From a virus (taxonomy: Duplodnaviria > Heunggongvirae > Uroviricota > Caudoviricetes): a stretch of DNA of 64,000 nucleotides. Shown piece by piece: positions 36,249 through 62,174 of the stretch; the first letter of the stretch is position 1; the number at the start of each line of letters is the position of its first letter. The DNA lies in the IMG/VR virus record IMGVR_UViG_3300011008_000003; one strand, 5' to 3'. The notes under the pieces were generated by a model. The model searched no databases, was not told the DNA's origin, and saw only the letters and a program-made list of their open reading frames with translations. Position numbers and translations under genes: made by a program.

Positions 36249-38004
36249 AAATTACCTTTAAGTTACTGTATCCGTGTTCTTTCTTGATTTCTATCTTGGA
36301 CGCCACTTCTACGTTCATTTCATTAAGCTTATGCGAAATGATATAGAAACCCAATTTCTTTTTCTTGTTCTTGGCAATCATATTCTTTAAAGTAGAAATG
36401 AAGCCCGTGATACCGGCCGCGTCGATGTTCTGGTCGAGAAGCTCGTCGATCATGCACATGTTGCAAGACCAGTTACTGATGATTCGGCTGATGTCGAAGA
36501 AGCTGAGAAGGATAGCCATGTCGATTCTGGTACGCTCGCCTGCAGAGAAACCCTCGTATGATCTCGGCAGGAGTTCGACAGTAAAGGATTCTTCCATCTG
36601 TTCGTTGAACGTCAGTTCGGTATTCTTAAGCTCGAAATCCTTTAAGTATGCGTTGACAGTCTTATTAAGGATTCCGGTAAGCTTACGGAAGAAGTACGTC
36701 TTGATGCCGTCGTCACCGAGGATGTTTACCAGTTCGGTATCGACCTTGATTTCTTCTTCCAGGCCGTCAATGTCGTGCTTTAACGCATCCGAAGCTGCTT
36801 CGAGCTCGGTAATCCTGTTTTCAGCATCAGACGTGTCGGCTGGACAGGTCTTATTGTTTTCCGCGTCCAGATTATCAAGTTCCTTGTCGAGTTCCGACTG
36901 TGCAGAGTTCTTAGCAACTTCCTCGCCTCGTATCTTTGTCTTAATCGTCTGAATGAATTCCTGCGCTTTGCGGTATTCATCGATCGCAGCGCGGTACGTA
37001 TTGAACTTTTCCTGGAGAGCCGGGATAATCTTCTTTTCGTTTTCATCATATTCTTCCTTCATCTGGTCAAGATGCTTCTTTGCATGTCCTTCATCCAAAG
37101 GCGAGCCGCATACCGGACAGGTCGGCTTCTTCGAAAGCTTTTCCAGCGTACTCGAAATCCGTTCCATAGTGGAATAGGCCATACCGATTTGTCTGTCAAT
37201 ACTAGACACCTCGTTGGCATCAGGACACTCTGGAAGCTTTTCAGTCAGCTCGACGATCTTCTTGTTCGCCATCTCGATATTGCTGTCGGCCTTCTTGATT
37301 CTGTCTTGGCAAGCCTTGATAGAATTGTTAATACGCTGTAAGTTCGCCGTTTTTATCTCGTTGAAACTGTTAATATATTCATTAAGCTTTTTCACATGGG
37401 ACTGGTTGTCTACAATCTGTCTCGTGATTCCATTAAGCTCTGTGGTCTTCAACGCCTGTTCGGAAGCCTTTAACGATTTTCTCTTCTTGACATCCTTGCA
37501 CATAAGGCCGAGGACGTCGATATTAAAGATATTTTCGATTAAGGTTCTTTTCTCGCCGATAGACAGGCTGAGGAACGGCTTGTTGTTGGTAACGCCCATG
37601 GCGACGATATTCTTGAAGAGACGGAAGTTAATCCCGAGCAGCTTGTCGATTTCGTCCTGATTAAGCTTCTTGGAAGAAAGTAGATCCAGTTCCTGTCCGT
37701 TCTTGAGGAATTCGAACTTGGCCGGCTTTAATCCCCTGGTAATTGTATAAAGGTCTTTTCCGATTTTGAAGTCAACCGTGACCTCTAGTCCCTTCCCGTT
37801 CTGTACGTTGACGAGCTCGCCCATCTTGATGTCTCGGTACGGTTTGCCGAAGAGGGCGAATGTCAGAGCGTCCAGGATGGTAGACTTTCCGGCTCCGTTG
37901 ACGGCCATGATTGTATTAAATCCCGGTTGGAATTCAATCTCCGCGCCGGCAGCGCCATAGGACATGATATTAGAAAAACTAAGTTTCTTAAATTCTACAA
38001 ACAT
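36241..38004 (-). CDS. gp46: Rad50/SMC-like recombination ATPase
   Basis: NGAGKS, CPVC hook, FSAGE, IDELLD, ISH. Confidence 0.95.
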   Translation of the reverse strand: MFVEFKKLSFSNIMSYGAAGAEIEFQPGFNTIMAVNGAGKSTILDALTFALFGKPYRDIKMGELVNVQNGKGLEVTVDFKIGKDLYTITRGLKPAKFEFLKNGQELDLLSSKKLNQDEIDKLLGINFRLFKNIVAMGVTNNKPFLSLSIGEKRTLIENIFNIDVLGLMCKDVKKRKSLKASEQALKTTELNGITRQIVDNQSHVKKLNEYINSFNEIKTANLQRINNSIKACQDRIKKADSNIEMANKKIVELTEKLPECPDANEVSSIDRQIGMAYSTMERISSTLEKLSKKPTCPVCGSPLDEGHAKKHLDQMKEEYDENEKKIIPALQEKFNTYRAAIDEYRKAQEFIQTIKTKIRGEEVAKNSAQSELDKELDNLDAENNKTCPADTSDAENRITELEAASDALKHDIDGLEEEIKVDTELVNILGDDGIKTYFFRKLTGILNKTVNAYLKDFELKNTELTFNEQMEESFTVELLPRSYEGFSAGERTRIDMAILLSFFDISRIISNWSCNMCMIDELLDQNIDAAGITGFISTLKNMIAKNKKKKLGFYIISHKLNEMNVEVASKIEIKKEHGYSNLKVIYG

Positions 38005-38127
38005 ACTGGATTAAATATAGAAATATTAATTAAGTTTACGAATGTTTGCGTTTTTATCTGGAAATTAGAAAATATACAGAATATTTTTATTAAATGAAAT
38101 CGATTAAGAAAATTTTCTATATTCGAG

Positions 38128-38780
38128 ATGTAAAAAGATCTTAACGTAATAAGTTCGCAGCATGATGATCGTTATATATAATATAAATGGTCTGGAAACG
38201 AAAGGATATTACGTTAAGTTTAAGGTAGCATCGGCTACCTGAGTCCTGTTCGCAACCGAACGTTTTTTATTACATAGCCAACCAGGTTTTGACAACCACA
38301 GGCAAGAAATCCAGAATCCGAGCGGTCTTCCTAAAGTCCATGCAACATTGGGCGAGGCACCTAAAGAGTCTGGTCGGGTCGGCCCGAGTCAGCAAGCCGC
38401 ATTCGAAAACCCGAAGCCTGACATTGAAGTATTGCCTAGCGAACAATACATATAGCCGCCATTGGCGACATAGGATGTAGCCGGAGTACAGGATGACCAA
38501 CCCGTAAGCCTATGTGTAAGTCCCGAAGATCGACGACATACGGAATACTCAGTGAAGTATGAATCGGTCGTGAGTCTCAGAAGAGATTTTCAGATTCCTT
38601 CTAAGGCTCATGATCTCAGAGCAGCCGAGCCTCGTGAAGAAGTGAATCAAATTCGACTTTACAAAGTATAAAGATTACGGCACTCCAAGTCGATCAAAAT
38701 CTACTAAGTCGATCGAATCGATCAAAGAATAAAATTTATAATATTATTAATGGGAGGAGTCTGCTCCCAGAAACCATTAA
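38128..38780 (+). ncRNA. candidate large structured ncRNA
   Basis: No credible ORF, TATATT at 38118, many nested stems. Confidence 0.5.
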
Positions 38781-38841
38781 GAAAAATCCAGAAAAAATTC
38801 ATTAAATAAACCGTCCGCGCGGTTTTTTTCTATATTATAAC

Positions 38842-38928
38842 ATGTGTTAAGGCTTCGTAATCCTTGGCATATTTCTCATAATAACCAATTAATACGGTCT
38901 CCTATATATCCGGGAGGCCGTATTTTTT
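38842..38928 (+). ncRNA. candidate small RNA (hairpin plus terminator)
   Basis: TATATT at 38831, ATGTGTTAAGG/CCTTGGCATAT stem, ATACGGTCTCC/GGAGGCCGTAT-T6. Confidence 0.45.
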
Positions 38929-38958
38929 ATTAAGGATTTCCAAATAATTCCATTAAGG

Positions 38959-38987
38959 TTTACATTTTTATTAAAAATTGCTATATT
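38959..38987 (+). promoter_or_regulatory. groEL promoter
   Basis: TTTACA-17-TATATT with extended TG. Confidence 0.75.
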
Positions 38988-39015
38988 TTAACCAGTCTTA
39001 TAAAAAGGATTAAAT

Positions 39016-40635
39016 ATGTCAAAAGAAATTTTGTTCGACGAAAATGCTCGTGTTAAGCTGATGGCCGGCGTAAATATCCTTGCCGATGCCGTATGTAGTA
39101 CTCTCGGTCCTTCTGGCCGTAATGTCATGTTGTCCAACGGTGTAGTCACCAAGGACGGCGTGTCGGTCGCCAAGGATATCAGTATGGAAGATCCGTTTGT
39201 TGATAAGGGTGTTCAGATGGCTGTAGCCGCCGCTTCCAAGACCAACGATGTCGCCGGTGACGGTACGACCTCCAGTGTCTGTCTCAGCCGCGCCATTGCC
39301 CGTGAAGGATTAAAGATTGTTGCAGCCGGCGCCAATCCGACTGAAGTAAAGGCCGGAATCGATAAAGCTGTTTCTGCTATCGTCGACCAGCTCGATAAGA
39401 ATTCCATTAAGGTAAACGACAAGAAGTCCATTGCACAGGTGGGTACTATCTCCGCTAACGGCGATACCGAAATCGGTAATATGATCGCCGATGCCATGGA
39501 CAAGGTTGGTCCGGACGGTGTTATCACTGTCGAGGAATCCAACACTGCAGAAACCGTTCTCGATGTCGTAGACGGTATGCAGTTCAATAACGGTTACCTC
39601 TCCCCGTATTTTGTAACTGACCAGGAAAAGATGGTTGCCGTTCTCGAAAACCCGGCCATCCTTATGTACGAACATAAGATTTCCAGTGTACAGGAATTGC
39701 TCCCGCATCTTGAATATATCGGCCAGTCCGGTAAGCCGTTGCTGATTATCGCAGAAGATGTTGACTCCGAAGCGCTCGCTATGTTGGTGTTGAATAAGCT
39801 CCGTGGCGCTCTAAAGGTCGTAGCTGTCAAGGCTCCTGGCTACGGCGAATCCAGGAAGAACAATCTCCGTGACATCGCGCTGCTTACCGGCGGCCACGTT
39901 GTTTCCGATGAAACAGGTGTTAAGCTTGCCGATGCAGTCACCCAGGAAATCCTTGGTTATGCCAAGACTGTTAAGGTTTCCCGTGACCATACCATTATTG
40001 TCGACGGTGCTGCTGAAAAGGAATCCGTAGACCAGCATGTCCAGACTCTTAAGGCTCAGCTCGCCTCTACCGAATCCGAATATGACAAGGCTAACCTTGC
40101 AGAACGTATTGCACGTCTGGCTGGCGGTGTCGCTGTCATTAAGGTCGGTGCAGCCACTGAAGTAGAAATGAAGGAAAAGAAAGACCGAGTGGACGATGCT
40201 CTCCATGCAACGAAGGCTGCTGTCGAAGAAGGTATTGTCGCAGGCGGCGGAACTGCCCTAATCCGTGCGGCATCCGCTGTCAAGGTCACTGGAGCTACAG
40301 CTGACGAAGAATCCGGTATTAAGATTATCATGAAGGCAGCCGAAGAACCGGCACGCCAGATTGTTAAGAATACCGGCAAGGAACCGTCCGTTGTGGTTAA
40401 CGAAATCATGAAGCGTTCCGGCAACGAAGGCTACAATGCCAAGACAGGTACGTTCGAAGACCTGGTTGAATCCGGTGTTATCGACCCGGTTAAGGTCACC
40501 AAGAACGCTCTTAAGAATGCCGCTTCTATCGCATCTATGATTCTGACGACTAACTGCGTTATCGTTGAGAAGAAGGAAGACAAGGAATGTTCTTGTCACC
40601 AGCCGCAGATGCCGATGATGCCCGGCATGATGTAA
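39016..40635 (+). CDS. groEL: chaperonin GroEL
   Basis: TLGP.GRN, TKDGVSVA, AGDGTT, GYLSPYF, IAEDVD.EAL, MPGMM tail. Confidence 0.98.
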   Translation: MSKEILFDENARVKLMAGVNILADAVCSTLGPSGRNVMLSNGVVTKDGVSVAKDISMEDPFVDKGVQMAVAAASKTNDVAGDGTTSSVCLSRAIAREGLKIVAAGANPTEVKAGIDKAVSAIVDQLDKNSIKVNDKKSIAQVGTISANGDTEIGNMIADAMDKVGPDGVITVEESNTAETVLDVVDGMQFNNGYLSPYFVTDQEKMVAVLENPAILMYEHKISSVQELLPHLEYIGQSGKPLLIIAEDVDSEALAMLVLNKLRGALKVVAVKAPGYGESRKNNLRDIALLTGGHVVSDETGVKLADAVTQEILGYAKTVKVSRDHTIIVDGAAEKESVDQHVQTLKAQLASTESEYDKANLAERIARLAGGVAVIKVGAATEVEMKEKKDRVDDALHATKAAVEEGIVAGGGTALIRAASAVKVTGATADEESGIKIIMKAAEEPARQIVKNTGKEPSVVVNEIMKRSGNEGYNAKTGTFEDLVESGVIDPVKVTKNALKNAASIASMILTTNCVIVEKKEDKECSCHQPQMPMMPGMM

Positions 40636-62090: not shown

Positions 62091-62174
62091 GGCCTTGTGG
62101 CGGAATAGGTAGACGCTGCAGACTTAAAATCTGTTGGGAGATTTCCCGTGTCGGTTCGAGTCCGACCTTGGTCA
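62091..62174 (+). tRNA. tRNA-Leu(TAA), mismatched acceptor stem, no encoded CCA
   Basis: TGGCGGAATAGGTAGACGC D-arm, GCAGA-CTTAAAA-TCTGT, long variable arm, GTCGGTTCGAGTCCGAC. Confidence 0.85.

Follow-up and report, generated by a model that had tools for sequence, protein, structure and literature searches.

The orphan motif cow-rumen-2 appears as the core of a much larger phage RNA

To our knowledge, very few large RNAs with complex folds have been described from bacteria and phages, and each is a ribozyme, a riboswitch or unexplained (ROOL, GOLLD, OLE). The orphan motif cow-rumen-2 is reportedly among the 224 candidate RNAs of Weinberg et al. 2017. Its Rfam entry (RF02947) is a 106-nt fragment without an assigned organism or function, and a literature search found neither a paper on a larger RNA around cow-rumen-2 nor a published function for the motif. 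The structure of cow-rumen-2 was revised in Rfam 15 (PMC11701678), and ROOL and GOLLD have been described by cryo-EM as RNA-only assemblies (bioRxiv 10.1101/2024.12.08.627333). Here we analyse a 64,000-nt stretch of viral DNA ('the window') and find good support for a real large phage RNA that is a much larger variant of this known orphan motif. A catalogued 106-nt orphan motif thereby turns out to be the central part of a far larger RNA with two pseudoknots and modular 5′ domains, tied to giant T4-like rumen phages, with a defined transcription unit and a fixed copy number of four. The Rfam family RF02947 needs revision, and exact boundaries and natural variants are now available for studies of structure, partners and catalysis.

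The RNA lies in an ORF-free gap of 1011 nt (38005-39015); features below are on the + strand unless marked otherwise. A sequence-only reading of this DNA had pointed to a gap of about 1 kb without genes between divergent gp46 and groEL, and Pfam domains agree on both flanks: a 587-aa ORF (-) on one side carries AAA_23, SMC_N and the Rad50 zinc hook, which mark it as a gp46/SbcC-like recombination ATPase, and a 539-aa ORF (+) on the other is Cpn60/GroEL. The ORFs that can be read inside 38005-39015 are 33-76 aa long, with TTG starts in most, and a Pfam search with the two longest gave no match. The GC-richer core is present as described (0.45-0.57 in the gap centre versus 0.19-0.30 in the flanks), as is every listed stem at its position. 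On the + strand, 38128-38830 folds with a minimum free energy of -181 kcal/mol, and dinucleotide shuffles give -160.6 +/- 5.8 (z = -3.5); on the - strand z is -2.0. The central proposal of that reading, a candidate large ornate phage ncRNA, is borne out by this folding energy and by covariation among homologues, the latter being far stronger support for an RNA than folding energy. Its 650-nt span as a single RNA stands only in part, as the conserved folded RNA is only 38276-38650 (+), about 365-375 nt, within the gap, with a lineage-specific leader before it (38128-38275) and a tail without a conserved fold after it (38651-38807). As an estimate of size, about 650 nt agrees with a transcription unit of about 640-700 nt.

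Scanning the whole 64-kb window with cmscan identified 38423-38528 (+) as cow-rumen-2 (RF02947) with 111 bits and E = 1e-20 (1.1e-20), where the curated gathering score is 66 bits. The match covers model positions 1-106 of 106 and is not truncated. By this defining covariance-model test, the core at 38423-38528 is a member of RF02947. The helices of cow-rumen-2 are kept by compensatory changes among relatives: P1 across 45 viral loci, P2 with two-sided changes in 6 of 7 pairs, and P3 with position 215/237 alternating between C-G and U-A among class II sequences (defined below). Searches of Rfam at E <= 10 with the gap of the window and with the paralogue L016 returned cow-rumen-2 alone, the remaining rows being at chance level. 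The earlier wording, 'known-class or new', therefore splits: the centre is catalogued as cow-rumen-2 (111 bits) and the RNA is not wholly new, while its size and architecture are new relative to the 106-nt entry. The classes that had been named as candidates fall away, since neither ROOL, GOLLD and OLE nor group I/II introns reach E = 10 in cmscan. ROOL, GOLLD and OLE gave no match either to the 64-kb window at the gathering threshold or, at E <= 10, to 37900-39100; for group I/II introns, RNase P RNA and tmRNA there was no match even at E = 10 in the gap, the last two in keeping with the earlier failure to find tmRNA ends or an RNase P motif.

With RF02947 the RNA has in common its hairpin, its long stem with bulges and the invariant sequences at the junctions, and the relatives of both come from cattle, sheep and goat gut samples. 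It differs in that the 106-nt fragment is here embedded as the core in a fold of about 375 nt, which has extra 5′ and 3′ domains and two classes of 5′ domain and belongs to a transcription unit of some 640-700 nt, in that a pseudoknot, PK1, replaces two inner pairs of the model, and in that the source is phage, with four copies per genome. The window locus adds to this a class II domain that contains a pseudoknot, an inserted leader, a terminator that covaries, and the classes of promoter. By analogy, the nearest counterparts of the RNA seem to be ROOL and GOLLD, two large orphan RNAs to whose families it does not belong. Like them it is a large, GC-richer, multi-junction, pseudoknotted phage ncRNA of rumen origin whose biochemical role is unexplained; unlike them it is smaller, with a conserved fold of ~375 nt, has no match to their sequence or structure, occurs as several diverged copies per genome, and does not sit beside the one tRNA gene detected in the window (62091, ~23 kb away). 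This tRNA gene (62091-62174, +; Rfam tRNA, 49 bits) is the sole other Rfam match in the window.

Relatives were collected with a pattern built from the invariant core, which gave 45 loci in IMG/VR, 101 stretches on metagenome contigs and 10 on contigs of metagenome-assembled genomes. With duplicates removed, the set comprises 98 distinct sequences that form 29 clusters and come from viral and metagenome contigs of rumen and gut. Nearly all derive from cattle, sheep or goat gut, in agreement with the runs that contain the window DNA. Exactly four copies, all of them above the Rfam cut-off, dispersed and mutually diverged, are present in each of two genomes that are complete and have terminal repeats (415,750 and 424,163 bp). 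Genes found near the copies include RegA, UvsW, a DHH phosphoesterase, tail sheath, a T4 baseplate-family protein and the gp46-like gene, a content that marks the carriers as giant T4-like phages. The paralogues are old and kept at syntenic sites, as opposed to recently spread. A syntenic orthologue, L039, also beside a gp46-like gene, aligns with the window over ~38280-38640, so conservation extends beyond the 106-nt motif, and cow-rumen-2 is only the middle of a larger RNA.

All paralogues possess the core as well as a 3′ domain marked by UUCCU...AGGCU...UCUC, and the same core is joined to either of two 5′ domains, by which the paralogues fall into two classes. The class I 5′ domain (GGARCGAAG...CAAYYCAAUG...UGUCGGUA) is found in 64 sequences and a degenerate variant, and the class II 5′ domain (CUUCCUAAAG-hairpin-GAGGCACCUAA...ACCCGAAG) in the window and 13 others. 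The contigs L178-L187, some of them 170-190 kb long with two copies, have been assigned to metagenome-assembled genomes under the labels Methanobrevibacter, Bacilli, Clostridia, Succinivibrionaceae and Coprovivens. The labels are mutually inconsistent, and we inferred no host from them; the contigs are probably of phage origin and were grouped by their composition, namely their low GC content.

The class II 5′ domain of the window (38276-38422) was delineated with RNAalifold, a covariation scan and pair counts with controls. It contains H1 (38277-79/38301-03), H1a (38285-87/38295-97), H2 (38311-18/38366-73), the invariant H3 (38324-30/38354-61), H3a (38336-40/38349-53) and H4 (38376-78/38410-12). 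In the covariation scan, H5a (CGGC/GCCG, 38380-83/38396-99; 4/4 pairs changed on both sides) and PK-A (GUCAG/CUGAC, 38388-92/38418-22; 4/5 pairs changed on both sides) interleave into an H-type pseudoknot. The core that follows (38423-38528, full-length RF02947 by cmscan) is built from P1 (38429-35/38443-49), P2 (38468-74/38509-15) and P3 (38482-85/38501-04), of which P1 and P2 had been listed earlier as GTATTG/CAATAC (38429/38444) and ACATAGG/CCTATGT (38468/38509). A second pseudoknot, PK1 (UUG with CAA, 38424-26/38498-500), joins the triplet before GAAG at the 5′ edge of the core to a variable triplet in the P3 loop. It covaries across all classes, with the variants UUG/CAA, GUG/CAC, AUG/CAU, GCG/CGC, CUG/CAG and UCG/CGA among clusters, and explains two inner pairs of the Rfam model better than the model does.

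Alignments and the covariation scan place the 3′ domain at 38527-38650. Its closing helix P5 (AGAUC/GAUCU, 38527-31/38613-17) covaries, being of the type AGAUCG/UGAUCU here and AGACAG/UUGUCU in other clusters. Two inner helices covary within class II (38535-37/38567-69 and 38537-41/38557-61, the second being CATAC/GTATG at 38537/38557). Hairpin P7 (38571-75/38606-10, within the stem TGAGTC..AGAAG/CTTCT..GGCTCA at 38571-38610) has five covarying pairs within class II and bears the family-wide UUCCU..AGGCU..UCUC, and a conserved CCUCGUGAAG follows at 38630-39. Several further pairings were considered, and three of them were rejected. RNAalifold proposed a long-range helix of GGG (38376-78) with CCC (38522-24), which we discarded because class I variants reveal covariation of CCC with UGG in the outer helix of the Rfam model, and GGG pairs locally with 38410-12. 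A switch in which a 5′ CCUC and the 3′ UCUC compete for GAGG is not compatible with L015, which lacks GAGG yet keeps GUCUC, and neither L071 nor L106 shows covariation for a helix between AAUCCAGAA in the tail and the 3′ strand of H2. The candidate pairings AGCC (38479-82)/GGCU (38605-08) and, in class I, UCGGU/GCCGG are compatible only through wobble.

RNAalifold, applied to 13 class II sequences, predicted 68 pairs, and compensatory changes are seen in 34 of these. The structure of 65 pairs in which we combined the helices of the 5′ domain, the two pseudoknots and the core of the Rfam model has standard pairs in 92.2% of cells across the 13 sequences, compared with 24-44% when the partners are slid by 1-3 columns; 32 pairs change on both sides, compared with 2-7 in the slid controls, and the covariation score is 0.434, compared with <= 0.10. 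None of 500 shuffles reached the observed values. As the 13 sequences stem from about seven lineages, the counts do not reflect independent changes; the slid controls keep the same relatedness and still fail. The RNA is read from the + strand, because G-U pairs are recurrent or invariant (e.g. columns 60/88 and 201/248), which would be A-C on the opposite strand.

The junctions of the core hold about 40 invariant, mostly unpaired nucleotides and two pseudoknots, with AUAGCCGCCAU, GAUGUAGCCGGAGUACAGGAUGACC, CCGUAAGC and GUAAGUCC as the long invariant, largely unpaired runs. T-loops, whose pattern is U-G-N-R-A, often form tertiary contacts, and the loop of H3a, with UGCAACAU, UGGGAUAU or a similar sequence, conforms to this pattern and may be such a loop. 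Invariant junctions held by two pseudoknots are reminiscent of ribozymes, riboswitches and protein-binding RNAs. It could accordingly be asked whether the locus is a degenerate or mobile element of ribozyme type, for instance the remains of an intron or an RNA that trims transcripts by cleaving itself, and the double-pseudoknot architecture with its invariant junction nucleotides, together with intergenic sites in varied contexts, would suit such an element. However, no Rfam ribozyme or intron family matches even at E = 10, the RNA sits between complete genes and interrupts none, the paralogues are old and at syntenic sites without recent spread, and consistent contig break points in RNA libraries were looked for and none was seen. 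We regard this explanation as very improbable.

Two promoter-like boxes precede the RNA. P_A, CTATATTCG (38116-38125; promoter-scan match ending at 38123), contains the TATATT that had been placed at 38118, and P_B, TATATATAAT, lies at 38173-82 (sequence and promoter scan). A TATATATAA box is found 8-15 nt before the 5′ end of the RNA (its first helix) in L106, L071, L090 and L039, and in L090 and L039 a further CTATATTTG box lies upstream, the same CTATATT-type box as P_A of the window. The promoter of the RNA thus belongs to a class in regular use in these phages: in the sense orientation, CTATATT stands upstream of genes 93 times in the complete relative G001, where 10.6 are expected. Upstream of genes in G001, enrichment is also found for the late box of T4 type, TATAAATA (85 versus 5.5 expected, 15-fold). 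In 18 cases (G001 = L157-L177; L005, L013, L028, L039) this late box ends 4 nt before ATG, so that many late mRNAs of these phages would be leaderless or nearly so.

L083 and L132 have both boxes of the window, and in all three ~85 nt are inserted between the second box and the RNA, a module conserved only there; the first stems of the sequence-only reading (38128-38275) thus belong to a leader and not to the conserved RNA. This lineage-specific leader contains the 12-bp helix, in which 38140-38151 is the exact reverse complement of 38207-38218, the hairpin AGGTAGC/GCTACCT (38224-38241) and a terminator-like hairpin (38247-62, with GTTCG/CGAAC at 38248-38261) that is directly followed by a U-run (38263-68, U6) just upstream of the conserved body. 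The leader might be a separate small RNA of ~140 nt or an attenuator of the large RNA. A contig from a wastewater RNA library has an 11-nt insertion after 38162, which L083 has too.

Downstream of the body, the tail (38651-38807) is poorly conserved, and a search of the alignment with RNAalifold found no conserved structure in it; it holds the hairpin TGGGAG/CTCCCA (38751/38764; hairpin 38751-69) and an A-rich box, GAAAAATCCAGAAAAAAT (38781-98), conserved in alignments. The string AAUCCAGAA is present both in the H2 region (38307-38320) and in this A-rich box (38781-38798) before the terminator. The terminator scan found an intrinsic terminator with hairpin and U7 at 38808-38829. Its stem shows compensatory changes in L106 (AAACCGCCGGTGCGGTTT) and L071 (GACCGGCGCGCCCGGTT) and is kept in three lineages, and this covariation indicates that it is selected to terminate in the window lineage. 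Between the RNA and groEL there follow a second terminator-bounded element and then a separate groEL promoter (38959-87). The upstream promoter boxes and the covarying terminator point to the RNA of the window lineage being its own transcription unit of about 640-700 nt and not a leader of groEL. A 501-nt metatranscriptome contig from a sheep-gut RNA run corresponds exactly to 38173-38673, with contigs of the same run covering gp46 and groEL and not the AT-rich spacers; this is a weak hint of transcription, as the four RNA libraries were available as assembled contigs only, which do not show ends, strand or level and may include DNA carry-over. Neither the uncovered parts of the gap nor depth values in these libraries were counted as evidence.

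The genes that follow the RNA differ between loci: a T4_baseplate-family (Pfam PF12322) protein and then RegA, a DHH-UvsW pair, tail sheath, a 455-aa ORF, or groEL. We looked across copies for a common first downstream gene and found none, as lengths and families differ. Each copy examined is nevertheless co-oriented with the next gene, and at most class I loci the next ORF begins 60-170 nt after the RNA without a detectable terminator. This orientation and spacing would be expected of a cis-acting 5′ leader of an early transcript that controls downstream genes, whether through processive antitermination, attenuation, processing or stabilisation, or riboswitch-like ligand sensing, and the two terminators between the RNA and groEL in the window are what an antiterminator RNA would be expected to read through. 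The downstream genes are, however, unrelated to each other, and most have their own TATAAATA late promoter, which sits after the RNA and before the start codon. The terminator of the window lineage covaries and is followed by a separate small unit and the groEL promoter. Conserved pairing of the RNA with a ribosome-binding site was also sought, and none was seen. A cis-acting leader is in our view an unlikely explanation. In a riboswitch, a terminator or a helix that sequesters the ribosome-binding site would be coupled directly to the aptamer and to the regulated gene; in the window the nearest terminator lies ~160 nt past the conserved fold, and groEL has its own promoter.

A promoter-driven structured RNA could also act as a pre-primer that forms a hybrid in AT-rich DNA downstream, in which case the four copies would be four origins of replication, an alternative raised in the sequence-only reading. 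T4 has several promoter-dependent origins, and the R-loop primer transcripts of T4 oriF and oriG, like ColE1 RNA II, resemble this locus in being promoter-driven RNAs, here at dispersed intergenic sites of a T4-like genome. The four copies per genome are dispersed, each with a promoter and then an AT-rich stretch, and one paralogue lies upstream of the uvsW operon. In the complete 415-kb genome, the four copies are nonetheless away from the GC-skew extremes (G001 copies at 51, 113, 273 and 359 kb versus cumulative extremes at ~155 and 340 kb), the skew of G001 simply tracks gene orientation, and the map of gene blocks carries no origin signal. AT-rich promoter regions follow nearly every gene here and are hence unspecific, and no hybrid-forming element of the kind in ColE1 RNA II or T4 origin transcripts was identified at the RNA locus. 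We know of no T4 origin that needs a conserved RNA fold, and the fold here is far more elaborate and conserved than that of known origin transcripts. The origin proposal found no support here, and we consider it quite improbable.

With the identity, fold, strand, boundaries and copy number of the RNA established, we think it probable that it is a stand-alone, trans-acting folded RNA gene, and we would place much lower confidence in any particular biochemistry for it. This reading is favoured because the junctions are invariant, the 5′ domains modular, the four paralogues old and syntenic, the promoter and terminator its own and the downstream genes unrelated. In such a gene, transcription would start at the CTATATT or TATATATAAT-type boxes (38116-38182) and run through the inserted leader and the RNA body (38276-38650) to the conserved terminator (38808-38829). 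The body consists of the class II 5′ domain (class I in other paralogues), the cow-rumen-2 core and the closed 3′ domain; the invariant core would form a tertiary pocket or a binding surface for a protein, a ligand or other copies of the RNA, and the folded RNA would act in trans. We infer that it serves as a ribonucleoprotein scaffold, an RNA-only assembly or a ribozyme and not as a control element of a neighbouring gene. Two observations count against the stand-alone reading. Most class I paralogues have no terminator before the co-oriented ORF, and there the RNA could be the 5′ leader of an early transcript; and transcription from the mapped boxes must pass the terminator-like hairpin and U-run (38247-38268). 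One speculative extension, which we hold only tentatively, is that the enlarged cow-rumen-2 RNA represents a new class of large, functional phage RNA needed early in infection, either a ribozyme or a particle formed with its paralogues or a phage protein, in which four paralogues share one catalytic or binding core and swappable peripheral domains confer specificity.

Directly after the terminator of the RNA, a second small unit (38829-38932, +) opens with a CTATATT box. Its element of ~95 nt (38838-38932) is a candidate small RNA whose CUCCU stretch could pair with Shine-Dalgarno-like sequences. The hairpin of the element shows covariation in L106 and L071, its single-stranded AUAUUUCUC(C/A)UAA is conserved, and a terminator of its own, which covaries too, lies at 38891-38924 and is followed by a U-run. 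In sister lineages (L039:4439-5806, L090, L073) the RNA is followed by a late promoter and then a conserved 455-aa ORF, for which Pfam and PHROG gave no match; in the window, 38830-39015 holds the small element, and this element and groEL stand in place of that ORF. The groEL promoter is preceded by ATTTCC..ATTCCATTAAG (38934-38958), which is similar to the AAUCCAGAA motif, and a string of this type may be a protein-binding or promoter-upstream element.
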